This document shows, one piece after another, positions 1,245 through 26,291 of a DNA stretch of 27,206 bases. A program made the translations under genes and the position numbers. Location of the stretch: the IMG/VR virus record IMGVR_UViG_2563366822_000012, positions 1 through 27,206 of that record. The stretch is one strand, 5' to 3'. The notes under the pieces are model-generated. The model had not been told where the DNA came from. It ran no database searches and worked only from the letters and a program-made list of their open reading frames with translations. This DNA comes from a virus (lineage: Duplodnaviria > Heunggongvirae > Uroviricota > Caudoviricetes). The stretch's first letter is position 1. Every line of letters begins with the position of its first letter.

Positions 1245-2402
1245 ATGCTCACCGTTAAGCAGATTGAAGCAGCAAAGCCGAAAGAAAAACCATACCGCCT
1301 TCTCGATGGTAATGGCCTGTACCTTTATGTCCCTGTGTCAGGGAAAAAGGTATGGCAGCTTCGCTACAAGATTGACGGTAAGGAGAAAATCCTGACCGTC
1401 GGAAAATATCCGCTAATGACTTTGCAGGAGGCAAGAGATAAAGCATGGACCGCGAGGAAAGACATCTCGGTTGGCATCGATCCGGTAAAAGCGAAAAAGG
1501 CTTCGTCTAACAACAATTCCTTTAGTGCGATTTACAAGGAATGGTACGAGCACAAGAAGCAAGTCTGGTCAGTAGGCTATGCAACTGAACTTTCAAAAAT
1601 GTTTGATGACGACATTTTACCTATCATCGGCGGCCTTGAAATTCAGGATATTGAGCCGATGCAACTGCTGGAAGTAATCCGCAGATTTGAAGATCGCGGT
1701 GCAATGGAGCGAGCAAATAAAGCCCGCAGAAGATGCGGCGAGGTTTTCCGTTACGCTATTGTCACTGGTAGGGCTAAATATAATCCGGCACCTGACCTTG
1801 CTGACGCCATGAAGGGATACCGTAAGAAGAACTTCCCGTTCCTTCCTGCAGACCAGATCCCGGAATTCAACAAAGCACTGGCAACATTTTCAGGAAGTAT
1901 CGTATCGCTCATTGCCACCAAAGTTTTACGCTACACAGCCCTAAGAACGAAAGAGCTTCGTTCCATGCAATGGAAGAACGTCGATTTTGAAAACAGGATT
2001 ATCACTATCGACGCCAGTGTGATGAAGGGACGCAAGATTCATGTTGTCCCGATGTCGGACCAGGTGGTTGAACTTCTCACTACGCTAAGCTCCATCACCA
2101 AACCAGTATCAGAGTTTGTTTTTGCCGGGCGCAACGATAAGAAGAAGCCAATCTGCGAGAACGCGGTATTGCTTGTGATCAAACAAATCGGCTATGAGGG
2201 TCTGGAAAGCGGTCACGGATTCAGGCATGAATTCAGCACGATTATGAACGAGAACGAATGGCCTGCTGATGCTATTGAAGTGCAACTGGCACATGCCAAC
2301 GGCGGATCTGTGCGCGGGATTTACAACCATGCTCAGTATCTCGATAAGCGCAGAGAAATGATGCAATGGTGGGCGGATTGGATCGATGAAAAGGTGGTGT
2401 GA
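1245..2402 (+). CDS. intS: Phage integrase, tyrosine recombinase (P4-type), 385 aa
   Basis: Directly downstream of the tRNA. The ORF track begins at a GTG (1209), but ATG 1245 (MLTVKQIEAAKPKEKPYRLLDGNGLYLYV...) gives the canonical P4-type integrase N-terminus. The C-terminal part contains the expected catalytic-type residues (…HGFRHEF…, …RGIYNHAQYL…). Resembles CPS-53 IntS from memory. Confidence 0.9.
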   Translation: MLTVKQIEAAKPKEKPYRLLDGNGLYLYVPVSGKKVWQLRYKIDGKEKILTVGKYPLMTLQEARDKAWTARKDISVGIDPVKAKKASSNNNSFSAIYKEWYEHKKQVWSVGYATELSKMFDDDILPIIGGLEIQDIEPMQLLEVIRRFEDRGAMERANKARRRCGEVFRYAIVTGRAKYNPAPDLADAMKGYRKKNFPFLPADQIPEFNKALATFSGSIVSLIATKVLRYTALRTKELRSMQWKNVDFENRIITIDASVMKGRKIHVVPMSDQVVELLTTLSSITKPVSEFVFAGRNDKKKPICENAVLLVIKQIGYEGLESGHGFRHEFSTIMNENEWPADAIEVQLAHANGGSVRGIYNHAQYLDKRREMMQWWADWIDEKVV

Positions 2403-2595
2403 TCCACCTATATCGCCGTACAATTATCCAACTCACATAATATGGCGAGAGTAAAGCCTTTAGGTTGGTTGTTTTTTTGGGTTTATTCATATAATATTCT
2501 ATATGTACGACAATTAAATTTATCTAATATTTAATTGCAATTTAAAAAATAACAAACTCACATTATACACTATAAAACAACATAAGGATTATGAC

Positions 2596-3183
2596 ATGTT
2601 GGTAGATAAGATATTGCACAAAACTGGATTATTTGACTTTCTGGACAAAATTTTAATAACCCGTCCTTTCGCTATTGTATCCAATAACTGCTGGGGCTAT
2701 AGACTATATAAAAATATAGGGCTTGAATATAATACTCCCTTTATCGGCCTGTACATCACAGCATCTGATTTTGTTGAAATGTGTATTAATTTGGAGCATT
2801 TTTTATCAAGAGACATTGTTGAAAGCGATTTCATTAATACAGAGCATAATTTCCCCGTTGCATTTGTGGATGGAGTAAAAATATACTTTATGCATTATAA
2901 CTCAAGGGCAGAAGCCATGGATAAATGGAATAGAAGAATAAAAAGACTTCAATCTTTTATATCATCACATGGCCTTGATAGAGTTGTTTTTAAAATGTGT
3001 GATAGAGATGGAAGTTACATGGATGTAATGAAATTTAATGAGTTAAAAATAAAAAGAACGATATCTTTCACCTCGAAAGAAAACAAAGGACTCGTTGAGA
3101 GCAATGGTAATATTTACCCGGGAGATGTATTGTTCAACTTCAGACACAGATATTATCTCAAGTATATCAAAACATTTAGATAA
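2596..3183 (+). CDS. Hypothetical cytoplasmic protein, 195 aa; low-GC cargo gene; possible DUF1919-like polysaccharide-modification protein (tentative)
   Basis: ATG 2596 preceded by AAGGA about 9 nt upstream. Visibly AT-rich compared with neighbours, with an AT-rich upstream region 2460-2590. N-terminal motif FAIVSNNCWGYRLY resembles what I recall as the DUF1919 signature. No transmembrane segments. Confidence 0.7.
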   Translation: MLVDKILHKTGLFDFLDKILITRPFAIVSNNCWGYRLYKNIGLEYNTPFIGLYITASDFVEMCINLEHFLSRDIVESDFINTEHNFPVAFVDGVKIYFMHYNSRAEAMDKWNRRIKRLQSFISSHGLDRVVFKMCDRDGSYMDVMKFNELKIKRTISFTSKENKGLVESNGNIYPGDVLFNFRHRYYLKYIKTFR

Positions 3184-3584
3184 CCACTCGACAAGAATAT
3201 CTAAAGGAAATTATCAGTAGTATTAAAGATTTAGTGTCATTCAGGTAAAAGACTTAAAAAAGAATGACACTTGTCTCAATCCTTTAGTTTCGATAAAGCA
3301 ATCTGGTCCAACCTAACTCTCACGAGTAAAGATAGTATCTCGACACTATCGAGTCAGGTGTCTGGAAATTCAGAAAGATGACCAAAGCAAAATATGCCTT
3401 CCAGAATGTGAAGGCAGTCTATTGAAGCTACTTACTGATGAATATGCAAGAAAGATAGCCAATGGCACTTCAAAGCTGAAATTTAACATTGTCGTAATTA
3501 GTCATTTACTTTGAAGAATGACTGAATAATGTGATGAATCTGCAGAATTTTTAACGTGGCATAACATTCTGAATGCCTTCGATA

Positions 3585-3752
3585 TCAACTGGCTGCCACC
3601 TCCGGTGGAGGCGTAAATTCGCCGTTACTGTATGTATAGCCCTGCTGAATGTCAGCGGGGCATTCAACCCAGATTAACGAGGGATGAAATCTATCGGTCG
3701 GGTCAATATCAGTTAATTCCATTACCACATTGTTTTCAATTCGTGCCCACAT
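3585..3752 (-). CDS. Short ORF (55 aa) immediately downstream of the tail fibre gene; possible truncated tail-fibre assembly or accessory protein remnant
   Basis: ATG at 3752-3750 (MWARIENNVVMELTDIDPTDRFHPSLIWVECPADIQQGYTYSNGEFTPPPEVAAS), stop at 3587-3585. Below the ORF-track size cutoff. Call is positional only; related argW prophages carry a tfa pseudogene here. Confidence 0.3.
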   Translation of the reverse strand: MWARIENNVVMELTDIDPTDRFHPSLIWVECPADIQQGYTYSNGEFTPPPEVAAS

Positions 3753-7280: not shown

Positions 7281-8359
7281 CAGAACGGGTCCTCCTGTAC
7301 TCTGGCTTTTTTCTTTTTCCGCACGCCGGGGGCTTCGGGTTCAGGCAGATAAGCATCAGGTGGGCCGACACGGATTTCCGTCAGGGTGCCGTTCTGGTCC
7401 TGGGTAAACGTGACTTCCGAGACAAGCAGTTCGGTATTGTCGAAACCACAGACCGGATCGAAGACAATCACCCGCTGGTTGGGCTGCCACAGCGTACCGT
7501 TACCCTGTCGCCAGCCCTGCACCACATAGGTGGTTTCATCCGTCCGCGCCGCCCGTTGTCGGGCTTCAAAGTCAGCACGCGCAATACAGCCTGCCCCCGT
7601 GGCCTGCCCTGTCTGCCTGATATACATCGGACGGTAACGGGCAATAAATGCGTCCTCTGTGCGGGCCCGCAGCGCGGTGGTGGTGGCCTCACCGAAATCA
7701 TCGTCGTTTCCGGCACGCTGCCCCGCCACCTGGTAAACAGAAAACCGCTCCCGGATACTCTTCTCCGTATCGCAGGAAAGGATGTTTTCCCCGAGTACCA
7801 GCGCAGTATGTGCCCGCGTTGAGCCAATACCGCCAATCACCAGCCTGCCGTGCGGGTCGTCGTAAGCCAGTGCCTGCTGCTGACCGAGTATTTTGTTGAT
7901 TACCTCAATCACCGTTTCACCGTGATCAGGCTGAACATCAGGAATAACACCCGACGGCGCACCGCTGTTCACCACCTCAATGCCGAAAGGCGCAGCAAGC
8001 GCCTGCGCAATCTGCACCAGCGAGCGTCCGTTAAACTGTGTCGGTTCGGCTGCACAGTCAATCAGGTCAGCCGTCAGACTGCGTCCGGCAATACCGGTGC
8101 TGACCGAACGGGCATCGTAACGAACGGGAGTCGCCTCCACCCAGCCGGTGATCACCAGCTCATCACCAATCAGCACTTCCACTTTTGAACCGTTTTTAAT
8201 GCGCGGCTGAAGCGTGGTGATACCCTCATCTCCCGGCCACTGGCGGGTGATCTCCACACTGAAATCCCGCGCCAGTCGTTCAACACCGGCACCGATGCGC
8301 ACCGATGTCCAGCCATTCCACTCCCGGCCATTTACCCGTAGCGTGACGTTATCGTTCAT
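7280..8359 (-). CDS. Baseplate hub / tail protein (Mu gpP/gp44-like, phage late control D family)
   Basis: 359-aa ORF following the DNA-circulation gene, in the order expected for Mu-like tails; overlaps both neighbours by 1-4 nt. Confidence 0.8.
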   Translation of the reverse strand: MNDNVTLRVNGREWNGWTSVRIGAGVERLARDFSVEITRQWPGDEGITTLQPRIKNGSKVEVLIGDELVITGWVEATPVRYDARSVSTGIAGRSLTADLIDCAAEPTQFNGRSLVQIAQALAAPFGIEVVNSGAPSGVIPDVQPDHGETVIEVINKILGQQQALAYDDPHGRLVIGGIGSTRAHTALVLGENILSCDTEKSIRERFSVYQVAGQRAGNDDDFGEATTTALRARTEDAFIARYRPMYIRQTGQATGAGCIARADFEARQRAARTDETTYVVQGWRQGNGTLWQPNQRVIVFDPVCGFDNTELLVSEVTFTQDQNGTLTEIRVGPPDAYLPEPEAPGVRKKKKARVQEDPF

Positions 8360-9684
8360 TGCACTGGCACCTTCAGAGGGATCACCGGCACAAAGCCGGG
8401 ATGCGTAATGGCATTACGCCGGATAATGTCCGCGTCACGCGCCGCGTTATCAAACCAGGTCGCCGCCAGCACCAGCGCGGGTAAAACCTCATCCGGCGTG
8501 CGCTGAATGATCCGTGCAGACTGTTCAAGGCGCGTGTTGATATCCGCATTCAGATCTGCTTTCACCCGGCGCAGCGCCAGAAACAGCGCATCACTGGTTG
8601 TACGGGACAACTCCTTATCAATTGCCGTATTCAGTGTGTCGCGAATGTCAGTCAGTTCTTCCCACGTCGGCAGGTCAACTGTGTTTTTCACCGCCGGTGC
8701 ATTGTTCAGTGCCGGATGCGTGACGGAAGGCCAGCAAGTGCTCTGCGCAGGTGTTGTTGCCTGCCCCACTGCGGAATTCTGCATCACCGCGGAAGTTGTT
8801 GGCGCAGGCAATCGGGTGACGGCATACGCCGCTTCGCTGATTGCGGTCGTACGAAGGGTGCTGGCAACCACGTTACGCTGCTGCGTCGCCGTGGCGGTGG
8901 TTTTACTGTCCGTTTTCCAGACGCCGCGCGGTTGCAGATCGCTGCCGAGGCTGACACCGGAAAGCGTTTTGATCATGGTGACCAGGTCGCTGGCGTTACC
9001 ATAAAGGCGTTTCCCGGTACGCCACATTTTCTGCACCTGCTCAACGAAATTTTTGCCTGACGATGGCGGCGGCAGAAGTACCGAGATATCCCCCTGCAAC
9101 AGCCTGGCGGCATCCGATACGGCAGAATCCACCACTTTCATCGCATCAGAAACATACCCCAGCATTATGCTGGCATTACCGATAACGTCGTTCTGCACGA
9201 AATCCGCCACACCATCGATACTGAAACCGCTGAAGCTGTCACTGATGCAGTCATCCAGTGCAGAACAGGATGACATCAGCGTCTGCGCCGTCGCCGCACC
9301 TGATGTGGGGTAAGAGAGTTCTCCTGCTTCGACAAACTTCAGGTCAAAGCGGACAATACGCCCTTCACTTTTCGATGTGCTGACCCGAACTTCCCCGTCA
9401 ACACAGACTTTCAGCTCACCATATGTCGGGTGGACAAGCGTGCCGGGACCGGGTTTATTCAGCGCTTCAATCAGGCGATCGCGCTGGTCAAAGCAGTCAT
9501 CTCCCACCACATAAGCTGTGATGGACGGGCGGAAAGTGACTTTTCCCAGATCTTCGGTATAGGGCTTGTCGCGGTTCGGGTATTCATGTGTTTCCACACG
9601 GCGACCGGTTCCCGCACTTTCTTCTTCAACCTTAAACGGTACGCCGCGAAATGACGCATCCTGAAGCCTGTCTTTCCACGTCAT
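8356..9684 (-). CDS. DNA circularisation protein N-domain family tail protein (Mu gpN/gp43-like)
   Basis: 442-aa ORF; ATG 9684 with GGAG about 10 nt upstream; N-terminus MTWKDRLQDASFRGVPFKVEEES...HEYPNRD is typical of this family. Confidence 0.85.
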   Translation of the reverse strand: MTWKDRLQDASFRGVPFKVEEESAGTGRRVETHEYPNRDKPYTEDLGKVTFRPSITAYVVGDDCFDQRDRLIEALNKPGPGTLVHPTYGELKVCVDGEVRVSTSKSEGRIVRFDLKFVEAGELSYPTSGAATAQTLMSSCSALDDCISDSFSGFSIDGVADFVQNDVIGNASIMLGYVSDAMKVVDSAVSDAARLLQGDISVLLPPPSSGKNFVEQVQKMWRTGKRLYGNASDLVTMIKTLSGVSLGSDLQPRGVWKTDSKTTATATQQRNVVASTLRTTAISEAAYAVTRLPAPTTSAVMQNSAVGQATTPAQSTCWPSVTHPALNNAPAVKNTVDLPTWEELTDIRDTLNTAIDKELSRTTSDALFLALRRVKADLNADINTRLEQSARIIQRTPDEVLPALVLAATWFDNAARDADIIRRNAITHPGFVPVIPLKVPVQ

Positions 9685-9774
9685 ATAAACTCCGGATACA
9701 AAAAACCCGCCAAATCTGCTTTGTCAGTTATTTACATCGCAGAAGATGTGGCGGGAACCTAATATTTTTAATTA

Positions 9775-10269
9775 CTATCTGAGTTGAACATCAATGGAAT
9801 AAATATCACCACTCTTTATAAATTTAGAATCTGTCCTTTCATCAAAAGATTCAAATGACTGTACCTTTAAAAACTTTTTCATTTTATTTTCAAAAATACT
9901 TTCATTAACACCAGTTAAATACTTGAACGCTCTACCAGCAAGGACCTCATTACTTAAATCCATTGTGTTTTTATTGTCTTTGCAAAACCAAACAATAACC
10001 TTTTGTGGGCATGATGGATTATAAACAGATATATAAAACTGCGGCTCATATTTTTCATCAGCGTCATCACTAAGCATTTCTTCAGAAGATAATTCTCTTC
10101 TGAATTCATATTGCCGCTTAGTTATTCCTTCATCCTTTATTATCTCTTGCTTAACTGGTGCAATACCTATAGAAGAGATTAATTCTGACTCATTAAAGCT
10201 GAACTTACACTCCTCCGCGGCCAAGTTAAAAGATAAAAGTGCAGATATAAAAAAAACAAAGATACGCAT
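9775..10269 (-). CDS. Hypothetical secreted protein, about 164 aa, with N-terminal signal peptide; low-GC moron inside the tail operon
   Basis: ORF track gives 9775..10287; the internal ATG at 10269 has a GAAGGGA Shine-Dalgarno and yields MRIFVFFISALLSFNLAAEE…, a classic Sec signal peptide. Strongly AT-rich versus flanking tail genes; about 90-100 bp intergenic spacers on both sides, unlike the tightly packed neighbours. Confidence 0.7.
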   Translation of the reverse strand: MRIFVFFISALLSFNLAAEECKFSFNESELISSIGIAPVKQEIIKDEGITKRQYEFRRELSSEEMLSDDADEKYEPQFYISVYNPSCPQKVIVWFCKDNKNTMDLSNEVLAGRAFKYLTGVNESIFENKMKKFLKVQSFESFDERTDSKFIKSGDIYSIDVQLR

Positions 10270-10368
10270 AATCATCCCTTCAATCATTTGTAAGGAATGA
10301 TTATATTAACTACTTAAAGCTGAAAACCCAAATTATGCCAGACAAAAACACATTAATCATTTTGTACA

Positions 10369-12201
10369 CTACCTGAACCGCGTATAGCCAACATCATGGC
10401 TGACATCAAAACCGCTGGATCGCGTTTCCATAACCCGCATACCCGGAGGCGAATTCACAAAAGATACCTTGATCTCACCATCAACTTTTGGCACAGAAGC
10501 TTTGTTAATCATGAAGGGATTCGAGCCTGTGGCATCGGAGGCGTTGTTTGCCTGAGCCGGATCCACTACCGGATAAGGAGTGTATCCCCGTGGCGGTATT
10601 CCCGTCCCATAAGCATCATAAGCACCCGCGCCCCACTGCGCCGAGTTAATGGCATCGACCGTGTCACCGGAACTGTCGGTAAACCATTCAATAATCGGCT
10701 TCAGCTTGTCCCACATATCCTGAAACCACTTAACAACCGGTCCCCAGTTATTGATCACCATCCCCAGCGGCGACCAGGCAAAAACCTTCTTCAGAAGTTC
10801 CCAGCCTGCCTCAAAATAAGGACCAATAGTTTCCCAGAGCTTCTTGAAATAAGGTCCGACAACATCCCAGTTAGTGATAATTAATCCCGCAGCCAGAGCA
10901 ATCGCCGTCGCAATCATGCCAATCGGCGTCATCGACATGATCCTGCTGACAATACTGATGGCACCGCCCACGCCCATCAATCCCAGTTTCAGAATCGCAA
11001 GACCGGCAGCAAGCCCGACGACGCCGCGAATAACCCGGGGATTTTCATCCGCAAACTTCGTGAATTTCTCCCCCAACTCCCCCAGCCACTGCGTGATGTT
11101 CTTAGCGTCACCAGAAAATGCGCCGCCAATAGCCGCAAGGCCGTTAGTTGCGGTCCCCGTCATTGCCTCCCACAGGTTGGACAGCGTACCAAGCTGGGCC
11201 TGAACACGTTTATTCAGGCTGGCCTGTTTATTCATCTTCTGCTGGATCTGATCGTAGCCATCCTTTCCTTTATCGATCAGCGCATTGACCACCTGAAGGG
11301 TTTCGGCATCATCACCAAATATTGCCTTAAGTACACCGGTTCGCTTAACGTCGGTCAGTTTTCGCAGCTTTGCCAGTTGCCTGAACATGTTATCAAGACC
11401 GCCAAAACTCCCTTTGCCATCAGTAAAATCGAGCTGTACCCCGAGTTTCTGGCGGGCCATGATTTTATTGACGTCCCTGATTTTCTTAACGCTTAATCCG
11501 GACTGGATAACTTTTCGCAGGGCATTACCTGCCGACTCCCCGTTCATCCCCATTTGATCCATCATGACACTGATGGGGGCAAGACTCTGTGCAGCCTGAA
11601 GACCGTCCTTGTTCACCATCTTCAGAACAGAGCTGGTTTTAGTGAAGAATGACAACATGTTGGTGTCGTCAACGCCCAGATAAAACGCCTTCTGAATTGT
11701 GTCGAACAGCCCCATCATGTCTTCTGAGGCCGTTCCGGTAGCATCCTGCATCTTTGCAGCAAACTCAGCAGCCGCTTCCGGTGTTTTTTTCAGTTGTACC
11801 GCAAGATAAGCTGTCGCTTTACCCACACCACCAAGAATGTTTTCTGCCGGGATCCCCTGACGCACCAGCATCTGCATCATGTTCTGGAAATCAGCCGTTG
11901 TACCGGGTAGCTGGTTACCCAGGCCAATAGCCAGTTTATTGATGTCCTGAAAGCTCTTTCCAACCTCGCCGTTCGCATCCATCATGGCGACTTTCAGCCC
12001 GGTGGCGGCGTTTTCCTGATCGGCATAAGATTTCAGGGAAAGCGTCAGACCCGCTGCCAGTCCGCCACCAAGCGCCAGCCCACCCTGTGACGCTTCTTCC
12101 GCCTGGCGTTTAAATCCCCGGATTTTCTTTTGCATTTTCGACAGCGCGGGAGAAAGCCTGTCGACACCGGTGATCAACGCCTTAAGCTCAAATTCAGCCA
12201 T
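10369..12201 (-). CDS. Tail tape measure protein
   Basis: 610-aa ORF directly downstream of the frameshifted chaperone pair; Ala/Gly-rich with hydrophobic stretches typical of tape measure proteins; ATG at 12201. Confidence 0.9.
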   Translation of the reverse strand: MAEFELKALITGVDRLSPALSKMQKKIRGFKRQAEEASQGGLALGGGLAAGLTLSLKSYADQENAATGLKVAMMDANGEVGKSFQDINKLAIGLGNQLPGTTADFQNMMQMLVRQGIPAENILGGVGKATAYLAVQLKKTPEAAAEFAAKMQDATGTASEDMMGLFDTIQKAFYLGVDDTNMLSFFTKTSSVLKMVNKDGLQAAQSLAPISVMMDQMGMNGESAGNALRKVIQSGLSVKKIRDVNKIMARQKLGVQLDFTDGKGSFGGLDNMFRQLAKLRKLTDVKRTGVLKAIFGDDAETLQVVNALIDKGKDGYDQIQQKMNKQASLNKRVQAQLGTLSNLWEAMTGTATNGLAAIGGAFSGDAKNITQWLGELGEKFTKFADENPRVIRGVVGLAAGLAILKLGLMGVGGAISIVSRIMSMTPIGMIATAIALAAGLIITNWDVVGPYFKKLWETIGPYFEAGWELLKKVFAWSPLGMVINNWGPVVKWFQDMWDKLKPIIEWFTDSSGDTVDAINSAQWGAGAYDAYGTGIPPRGYTPYPVVDPAQANNASDATGSNPFMINKASVPKVDGEIKVSFVNSPPGMRVMETRSSGFDVSHDVGYTRFR

Positions 12202-23770: not shown

Positions 23771-24232
23771 TTATTTCAGGCATTGCGTCCTGATGTATTC
23801 CTGCAGGTAGTTAACCTGCGCGGTTATCCTGTCGATTCCGCTTCGTAGACGGTAATAATTGAGTTCAGCATCTGCTGTAAGTCTTGGGCTTTCTCCATCG
23901 CCCATGCTGCTGGCTCCGGTCGTTGACTTTGCACAGGTGGCGGCGACTTGCAGGCGCTTACGCCCAGCAGAAACATCAGCACGGAGACTTTCGATAGTCG
24001 CGTTAGCATCAGCAAGCTCCTTTGTATATCTGGCATCGAGTTCTGCTACGTCACGTTGACGCTTCTGCATATCAGAGATCGTCGCCATAGCCGAATCTAA
24101 TGCCATAGCGTTTTCGTCGCGCTGTTTTTTGTATTCAATGGCTTTATTGTGGTAATGATTAGCTGACCAGACGAGAGAACCGAATAAAGTCAGGAGAAAA
24201 GCAGAAATAACCAGCTTATAGCGAAGTTTCAT
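23771..24232 (-). CDS. Rz: Rz i-spanin (inner-membrane spanin subunit)
   Basis: ORF track starts at TTG 24265; ATG 24232 gives [27 protein letters not shown]…, an N-terminal membrane anchor followed by a coiled-coil region, laid out like lambda Rz; follows R. Confidence 0.85.
   Translation of the reverse strand: MKLRYKLVISAFLLTLFGSLVWSANHYHNKAIEYKKQRDENAMALDSAMATISDMQKRQRDVAELDARYTKELADANATIESLRADVSAGRKRLQVAATCAKSTTGASSMGDGESPRLTADAELNYYRLRSGIDRITAQVNYLQEYIRTQCLK
23824..24009 (-). CDS. Rz1: Rz1 o-spanin lipoprotein, embedded in the +1 frame of Rz
   Basis: ATG 24009 gives MLTRLSKVSVLMFLLGVSAC-KSPPPVQSQRPEPAAW…: signal peptide with lipobox-like LGVSAC, then a proline-rich mature region. Entirely nested within Rz, as in lambda. 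Confidence 0.65.
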   Translation of the reverse strand: MLTRLSKVSVLMFLLGVSACKSPPPVQSQRPEPAAWAMEKAQDLQQMLNSIITVYEAESTG

Positions 24233-24692
24233 TAACCACCCCGCCAGCTTCTTTGAATTTGGCAATCAGACTATCGATCTTGTGTTCATACTGACCGTAG
24301 CCAGCACCGGGCAATGAAGCCCAAATATTGCTGCAACGATCAATAGCCTGACGAATATCACCGCGATCAATCATCGGCAAAGCGCCACGTTCCTTAATCT
24401 GCTGCAGCGCAACAGCGTCCTGGCTTTTGGGAGAGAAGTCTTTCAGGCCAAGCTGCTTACGATAGGCATCCCACCAACGGGAAAGAAGCTGATAGCGACC
24501 GGCTGCTGTTGATTTGAGTTTGGGGTTTAGCGTGACAAGTTTGCGAGGGTGATCGGAGTAATCAGTGAATAGTTCTCCTCCTACAATGACGTCATAACCA
24601 TGATTTCTGGTTTTCTGCCGTCCGTTATCAGTTCCCTCTGACCATGCCAGCATATCGAGGAACGCCTTACGTTGATTATTGATTTCCACCAT
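24216..24692 (-). CDS. R: Endolysin, lambda R-type lytic transglycosylase
   Basis: 158-aa ORF; [39 protein letters not shown]… is near-identical to my memory of lambda R over most of its length. Confidence 0.93.
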
Positions 24693-25667: not shown

Positions 25668-26291
25668 CTAACGTGTGACCGCATTCAAAATGTTGTCTGC
25701 GATTGACTCTTCTTTGTGGCATTGCACCACCAGAGCGTCATACAGCGGCTTAACAGTGCGTGACCAGGTGGGTTGAGTAAGGTTTGGGATTAGCATCGTT
25801 ACAGCGCGATATGCGGCGCTTGCTGGCATTCTTGAATAGCCGACACCTTTGCATCTTCCGCATTCTTTCTCAACAACTCTCCCCCACTGCTCTGTTTTGG
25901 CAATATCAACCGCCCGACCTGTACCGTGGCAATCTCTGCATCTTGCGCCCGGAGTCGCGGCACTACGGCAATAATCAGCATAAGCGAATGTTGCGAGCAC
26001 TTGCAGTACCTTTGCCTTAGTATTTCCTTCGAGCTTTGCCACACCACGGTATTTCCCCGATACCTTGTGTGCAAATTGCATCAGATAGTTGATAGCCTTT
26101 TGTTTGTCGTTCTGGCTGAGTTCGTGCTTACCACAGAATGCAGCCATTCCGAATCCGGCTTGTGATTGCGCCATCCCCATAGCAGCCATCACATCAGTAC
26201 CGGAAAGAGAGTCAGAAGCCGTAGCCCGTGGTGAGTCGCTCATCATCGGGCTTTTTGGCGAATGAAATTTAGCTACGTTTTCGAGTCTCAT
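25668..26291 (-). CDS. Q: Late-gene antiterminator Q (lambda-type)
   Basis: 207-aa [34 protein letters not shown]… with the zinc-binding CRDCHGTGR…CGRCKG motif; near-identical to lambda Q from memory. Confidence 0.93.

Follow-up and report, generated by a model that had tools for sequence, protein, structure and literature searches.

A probable exported accessory gene in a variable slot of the Mu-type tail operon of lambdoid prophages

Gene X and its surroundings in the prophage

The window analysed here, a stretch of 27,206 nt taken from IMG/VR virus record IMGVR_UViG_2563366822_000012, represents one end of a lambdoid E. coli prophage. A host gene of the formate/nitrite-transporter family (1-933) is followed by tRNA-Arg(CCT) (1009-1083), beside which the prophage is integrated, and by an integrase gene immediately downstream of the tRNA (1209-2402). 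The phage genes then lie on the minus strand in the order tail fibre, Mu-type baseplate and contractile tail, HK97-type head, terminase, lysis cassette and Q antiterminator (25668..26291, minus strand; PF03589, E = 1.3e-57). The endolysin gene of the lysis cassette (24216-24692, minus strand) matched phrog_90 (E = 3e-63) and no Pfam family at E <= 0.001.

Within the tail operon, a single gene that we call X (9775..10269, minus strand) lies in a slot bordered upstream by the tail tape measure gene (10369..12201, minus strand; PF10145, E = 1.3e-26) and downstream by the gene for a gpN-like DNA circularisation or baseplate hub protein (DNA_circ_N; 8356..9684, minus strand; PF07157, E = 3.8e-34). 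Delimited as an open reading frame and by its PHROG match, X encodes a 164-aa precursor (RefSeq WP_001219112.1) of family phrog_8976. A ribosome-binding site, AGGGA, can be read from the sequence at 10275..10279 on the minus strand, 5 nt ahead of the ATG at 10269, while a second in-frame ATG upstream, at 10287, has no such site and would yield 170 aa. We favour the 164-aa start because of the AGGGA site, the 164-position phrog_8976 model, the 164-aa homologues and the start chosen in RefSeq.

The initial annotation had described a 164-aa reading frame between the tape measure and gpN genes, with sharply lower GC and flanking spacers of about 90-100 bp, and all of this was borne out by measurement. 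GC is 0.32 in the X reading frame versus 0.52 in the tape measure gene and 0.56 in the gpN gene (0.52-0.59 across the flanks overall), GC3 is 0.27 versus 0.57-0.60 in the flanking genes, and the spacers measure 99 nt on the upstream side and 90 nt on the downstream side. The same annotation called the operon otherwise tightly packed, with overlaps of 1-4 nt; neighbouring tail genes do overlap or nearly abut, but the overlaps run from 1 to 14 nt, one pair is separated by a 3-nt gap, and a spacer of 141 nt precedes the tape measure gene. The traits given for morons in PMC3594210 (citing Juhala et al. 2000) include extra DNA, deviant composition, a promoter and terminator of their own and expression from the repressed prophage, and in base composition, by GC and GC3 alike, X departs from its neighbours as a moron does.

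The window contains just two AT-rich islands, and X forms one of them. The other (2401-3600, GC 0.31-0.36) lies between the integrase and tail fibre genes and holds a DUF1919 gene on the plus strand (2596-3183), which Pfam matched at E = 3.5e-33 and PHROGs did not match; the next 570 nt or so contain no long open reading frame. This att-proximal DUF1919 gene could be a second cargo gene or a conversion gene.

The tape measure/gpN junction and its resident terminator

We compared a 1,884-nt query spanning the slot with 5,426 complete E. coli genomes and recovered the junction in 1,097 of them, about a fifth. The junction is empty and contiguous, with a 60-nt spacer, in 542 genomes, and X is present in 84. 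Most of the remaining genomes carry a gene for one of four other products: a protein of 176 aa with a membrane segment at its N-terminus (174 genomes), an OB-fold protein (PF12869), likewise with an N-terminal membrane segment, that is encoded on the opposite strand and truncated in E. coli 042 (70 genomes), a 225-aa lipoprotein with an LLGGC lipobox (54 genomes) and a bPH_1 protein that also occurs in Edwardsiella phage EPP-1 (24 genomes); these cargo tallies are gene counts, and for each type of cargo the slot position was verified in one genome or two. The slot therefore receives at least four kinds of occupant unrelated to X and, with X, at least five cargos. The alternative cargo is AT-rich throughout (GC 0.34-0.42), and three of the four other cargos are, like X, targeted to the envelope. 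The OB-fold cargo matched phrog_8545, 'superinfection exclusion Sie-like' (E = 1.5e-49), a label that is a database annotation. We also considered X as a diverged allele of another occupant and rejected this, since hhalign against three cargos returned probabilities of <=1.3% and BLASTP against all of them found nothing, the bPH_1 protein having been compared with X by BLASTP alone, which showed no similarity.

The same contrast between empty and occupied junctions is seen among phages. SfV, SfI, SfII, SfIV and YeP1 have no gene at the junction, and the flanking DNA of these X-less phages is about 95% identical; phage SKA5 carries X at 99% identity. X is thus extra DNA between genes that are adjacent in related phages, a further moron trait, and it is not found in all functional tails of the type, as a Mu-type tail protein would be. 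Because these five phages do without the gene and 542 junctions are empty, X is not needed for building the Mu-type tail. The initial annotation had proposed that X is extra and non-structural, a claim that would fall if related prophages universally carried a conserved structural gene at this place. We looked for such a gene and found relatives to be either empty or differently filled, the junction being uninterrupted in SfV, SfI, SfII, SfIV and YeP1 and in roughly half of the E. coli junctions.

Two further observations touch on the wider distribution and plasticity of this tail module. The junction in its empty state is present on NZ_CP142787.1, a 55.6-kb plasmid record of E. coli SX12 that might represent a phage-plasmid equipped with this tail module, and plasmid-borne matches to the junction number 13 places in all. 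An Atlantibacter prophage (L028, 5980-7778) carries two extra genes, of 506 aa and 93 aa, between its DNA_circ_N and gpP genes; neither has a Pfam match, and this gap is another variable point in the module.

Downstream of X, an intrinsic-terminator-like hairpin with a T-run (9700..9755, minus strand; CCCGCCA...TGGCGGG) stands directly ahead of the gpN ribosome-binding site, with a predicted folding energy of -22.3 kcal/mol (z = -2.6); the tetraloop seen elsewhere gives way here to a loop of 36 nt that includes a sub-stem. We surveyed the 75 nt ahead of the gpN start in 18 junctions and found a GC hairpin with a T-run directly before the gpN ribosome-binding site in 16, most commonly as ACCCGC-TTCG-GCGGGT followed by T7. 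It is found in empty junctions (E. coli BHD6, SfII, YeP1), behind every same-strand cargo and at X homologues of other genera, and its stem changes in paired fashion (CCCGC/GCGGG, CCCAC/GTGGG, GCCACC/GGTGGC). Two junctions depart from this pattern, that of SfIV and that holding the opposite-strand OB-fold gene, in the latter of which a hairpin follows the tape measure gene instead. In the SfII record the hairpin is annotated as a putative rho-independent terminator. Beside the window, we noted it at L008 (~919-941) and, just upstream of DNA_circ_N, at L019, L022, L021, L002, L004, L015, L016, L024, L028 and L030, a range that takes in phages of Escherichia, Shigella, Yersinia and Edwardsiella as well as Kosakonia and metagenomes, with or without cargo.

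Since the same element occurs in empty junctions and behind other cargo, the terminator belongs to the phage backbone and not to X. The hairpin reported in the initial annotation is real, but its attribution to X as a terminator of its own does not stand, and this one of the moron traits is missing from X. It also follows that cargo is bounded by the tape measure stop codon on one side and by a resident terminator on the other.

X is moron-type accessory cargo of lambdoid prophages with Mu-type (SfV-like) tails, and it is very probably a non-structural accessory gene of a cargo slot, with an exported product. Our literature searches on the slot, on WP_001219112 and on morons of SfV-like tails found no description, although one may exist elsewhere. 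The picture of a slot with at least five cargos and a conserved terminator is useful and would not surprise a phage genomicist, and the X family is already catalogued as phrog_8976.

The X protein and its descent

The X precursor begins with a predicted Sec signal peptide, MRIFVFFISALLSFNLAA (10216..10269, minus strand), with cleavage before EEC, which was the sole hydrophobic segment in a hydropathy scan. By a sequence heuristic, the N-terminus consists of MR, a 12-residue hydrophobic core and NLAA/EEC (the slash marking the cut), and the remainder of the protein has no other hydrophobic window, as expected by this heuristic of a Sec-exported soluble protein. The leader pattern of n-region, h-region and A/E-[QE]-C is kept in 15 of the 16 family members in which the N-terminus is present. 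The signal peptide proposed in the initial annotation is thus a conserved property of the family, but the cut has to be moved by one residue, as conservation of the motif A/E-[EQ]-C in the family alignment makes cleavage after A18 likely. The X product therefore looks exported, going by its predicted Sec-type leader, and the predicted mature protein is acidic, with 146 aa and a pI of 4.9.

Three cysteines are present in X, as had been counted initially, but conservation is limited to C21 and C87, and the third is peculiar to this allele. C87 is invariant in 17 of 17 aligned sequences and C21 is absent only from a single non-phage copy (P0026, described below); mature X is probably held by one C21-C87 disulfide. 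We ruled out X as a lipoprotein, as it has no lipobox of the form [LVI][ASTVI][GAS]C and, in NLAAEEC, the cysteine falls at +3 of the predicted mature protein.

Over its full length X belongs to phrog_8976 (E = 2.8e-106; residues 7-170 of the 170-aa reading frame on positions 1-164 of 164), a family that has no functional annotation. Scans of X against Pfam, NCBIfam and PADLOC gave zero matches, and PHROGs returned this unannotated family alone, in agreement with the initial annotation, which had recognised no family. An exhaustive phmmer search of 1.84 billion representative proteins gave 12 matches, all of Enterobacterales type, and a 5.8-billion collection gave 25 clusters, many of them fragments, even by profile; no remoter relatives were gained by the profile search. 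Named members come from Escherichia, Salmonella, Kosakonia, Atlantibacter and Yersinia ruckeri.

This small family is under purifying selection (pN/pS about 0.06-0.16), and 39 columns are invariant among its 13 closer members. An AlphaFold2 model of X, built from a 17-sequence alignment, predicts an alpha+beta fold with seven strands and two long helices (pLDDT 89, pTM 0.80), and this confident fold together with purifying selection indicates a functional gene. Foldseek of the model against the PDB found no match at E <= 0.001, a search of BFVD returned a single uncharacterised gut-phage protein (TM about 0.6), and a sequence profile search of the PDB gave noise only. We found no homology in sequence or fold to gp15/YebO, Sp, Imm, Cor, SieA or the PADLOC models.

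We then considered how long X has occupied its slot. Other Enterobacterales have homologues of 27-66% identity in this slot, and all eleven prophage loci recovered keep the order tape measure, X, DNA_circ_N. Where X is 59-62% identical to the window copy, the tail proteins of the same loci are 70-90% identical; where X is at 36%, the tail proteins are at 47-79%; and where X has fallen to 27%, the tail proteins are at 43-63%, so that X diverges at about twice the rate of the tail proteins. Judged from these comparisons, X co-diverges with the tail module across genera and is old in the slot. The description of X as 'inserted' is accordingly wrong in the sense of a recent event, given homologues that hold the same slot across genera and diverge alongside the tail genes. 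GC3 of X is 0.27-0.42 versus 0.47-0.64 in the flanks at L002, L015, L016 and L024 and in the window, at synonymous sites that are saturated. Because low GC3 persists despite this saturation, the AT-richness of X appears to be maintained and is not the fading trace of a recent transfer.

One further relative lies outside any prophage. P0026, a 34%-identical homologue at L026 (4001-4471) and also at L027, is encoded just past the terminator of a gene for a 1,079-aa pertactin-type autotransporter, at a GC of 0.38 versus 0.55-0.6 in its neighbours, and it retains neither the signal peptide nor the first conserved cysteine.

Transcription and possible function of X

The initial annotation had also pointed to a promoter-like motif upstream of X as fitting independent expression. 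The extended -10-like motif TGgCATAAT is indeed present at 10332..10340 on the minus strand, a candidate element read from the sequence; the best -35 candidate, ATGATT at 10355-10360, matches at 3 of 6 positions, and a consensus promoter scanner found nothing upstream of X here or at L002, L004 and L015. TGgCATAAT is unchanged in an allele that is 5% divergent in the X coding sequence, which over so short a stretch is not significant. Ahead of the 176-aa cargo the scanner did report an extended -10 promoter, a type of match that is not above chance in AT-rich DNA, and promoter scans in such DNA are uninformative, with counts at or below shuffle expectation. In three distant lineages (L015, L016 and L024 of Yersinia ruckeri) the spacer from the tape measure stop to the X start is 12-17 nt, with a good ribosome-binding site, while the closer relatives have spacers of 72-134 nt. 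A spacer of 12-17 nt leaves no room for a promoter, and in these three lineages X is most simply co-transcribed with the late tail genes.

Lambdoid late transcription is Q-antiterminated and expected to pass through intrinsic terminators. As the prophage encodes a Q antiterminator, late read-through of X and of the terminator behind it is to be expected, and Q-antiterminated late transcripts would cross both. Expression of X in the lysogen would require a weak promoter in the 99-nt spacer. Such expression and a role in conversion or exclusion are plausible.

Our best overall explanation, which we hold tentatively, is that X is moron-type slot cargo whose exported product acts at the cell envelope, probably in phage exclusion; taken by itself, exclusion as the activity of X is a possibility that we advance with reserve. 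X would be exported through its Sec-type leader and cleaved to a 146-aa acidic soluble periplasmic protein, which would act at the envelope, outside the virion, and shield the lysogen or infected cell from other phages. It may do so by blocking a periplasmic step of adsorption or DNA entry, that is, by superinfection exclusion as known for HK97 gp15, T4 Spackle and Cor, through an unrelated protein. We propose exclusion because most slot occupants are envelope proteins and one is Sie-like, because HK97 gp15 sets a precedent, and because X evolves fast; a divergence of about twice that of the tail proteins is as expected of an outward-facing protein. Against this stand the missing homology to known exclusion proteins, the poor promoter candidates and the start of the gene 12-17 nt past the tape measure stop in three distant lineages. 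We considered exclusion of phages of its own tail type and disfavour it. A second tape measure/gpN junction is present on 16 of 60 X-bearing chromosomes versus at most 121 of 1,045 others (Fisher p = 0.002, clonality uncorrected), and this excess makes exclusion of the own tail type unlikely.

The closest known systems resemble X in arrangement and not in sequence. HK97 gene 15, the first named moron, adjoins the tape measure gene, and its product excludes phages at DNA entry (PMC3594210). Like X, it is a single extra gene of deviant composition that adjoins the tape measure gene of a lambdoid tail operon and encodes an envelope product, in the case of X a predicted one (PMC3594210). However, gp15 is a small YebO-like inner-membrane protein encoded upstream of the tape measure gene, with prophage expression and exclusion demonstrated, whereas X is soluble and predicted to be exported, is encoded downstream of the tape measure gene and has no sequence relation to gp15. 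A second parallel is offered by P2 and P4 phages and satellites, in which antiviral cargo is concentrated at hot spots (Rousset et al. 2022, cited in PMC11364771). These share with the slot a fixed intergenic site flanked by conserved genes and alternative, unrelated AT-rich cargo in near-identical elements; the slot differs in its site between the tape measure and gpN genes and in its single small genes for mostly envelope proteins.

X and T4 Spackle are alike in being small periplasmic proteins exported by Sec, X by prediction. Spackle (Sp) inhibits the tail lysozyme gp5, blocks incoming phage and is made early in infection by a lytic phage. Neither Spackle nor any other exclusion protein was among the PDB fold matches listed for X, and X has no Pfam family. 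The phage-encoded lipoproteins Cor, Llp and Ltp, which block receptors or DNA entry, are cargo near tail genes. One alternative occupant of the slot is, like them, a lipoprotein; X itself has no lipobox and no match to such families. PADLOC models matched none of the slot cargos.

Among the alternatives, X could be a periplasmic host-fitness factor unrelated to phages, either an orphan immunity protein or inhibitor directed against peptidoglycan-targeting toxins (T6SS effectors, colicins, lysozymes) or a prophage-expressed colonisation or virulence factor. All eleven prophage loci have X in the tail slot, however, and the sole exception, P0026, is without the leader and the first cysteine. The sources of X carriers (chicken, human, mouse, cattle and water) show no host pattern, and the structural matches of X are at noise level. 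On this evidence we consider a host-fitness role unlikely.

X might otherwise act late in the phage cycle, transcribed together with the tail genes and exported in lytic growth, where it would keep superinfecting phages out of the cell already infected or change the envelope before lysis; it would then not be a conversion gene expressed by the prophage. The 12-17 nt spacers with good ribosome-binding sites in three distant lineages speak for this, as do the strand shared with the tail genes, a divergence that follows the tail module, the scanner's failure to find a consensus promoter here and at three homologous loci, and the late read-through expected with a Q antiterminator. It nonetheless seems to us quite improbable: X is dispensable in SfV, SfI, SfII, SfIV and YeP1, the spacers of closer relatives are 72-134 nt, at least one other cargo has a scanner-detected extended -10 promoter in the equivalent spacer (a match of the chance-level kind noted above), and the timing of the tail operon is late for useful exclusion.

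That X no longer has a function and is a remnant, decaying or selfish, could be argued from its lack of a known family and its mere 12 matches among 1.84 billion representative proteins. Its full length is retained at 27-66% identity, however, pN lies far below pS, the 13 closer members share 39 invariant columns, the predicted fold is confident, and no frameshift or premature stop was seen in X alleles at the loci examined; we regard a remnant as very improbable. Least credible of all is a structural or assembly protein of this Mu-type tail variant, as X does keep a fixed tape measure/gpN position in every X-bearing prophage and diverges with the tail proteins, but carries a signal peptide incompatible with cytoplasmic tail assembly, is absent from phages with ~95% identical flanks and from 542 E. 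coli genomes, and elsewhere gives way to unrelated genes, one of which runs on the opposite strand.

To return to X as exported, envelope-acting slot cargo, a bolder extension, which we consider doubtful, is that the tape measure/gpN junction of Mu-type tails is an Enterobacterales dock, delimited by the conserved terminator, for small envelope-acting anti-phage genes, that X founds a new-fold family of periplasmic DNA-entry exclusion proteins, and that AT-richness is selected, for example through H-NS silencing or regulation.

As it stands, X is a well-documented case of a kind that is common, the uncharacterised accessory gene carried within a prophage tail operon. Two side results can be tested in their own right, namely a conserved intrinsic terminator midway through a tail operon subject to Q antitermination and an accessory gene that has stayed AT-rich through long co-divergence. 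If the slot occupants prove to be envelope-level exclusion factors, the junction would be a simple marker for mining single-gene defences, and X would add to these a periplasmic mechanism with an uncharacterised fold.
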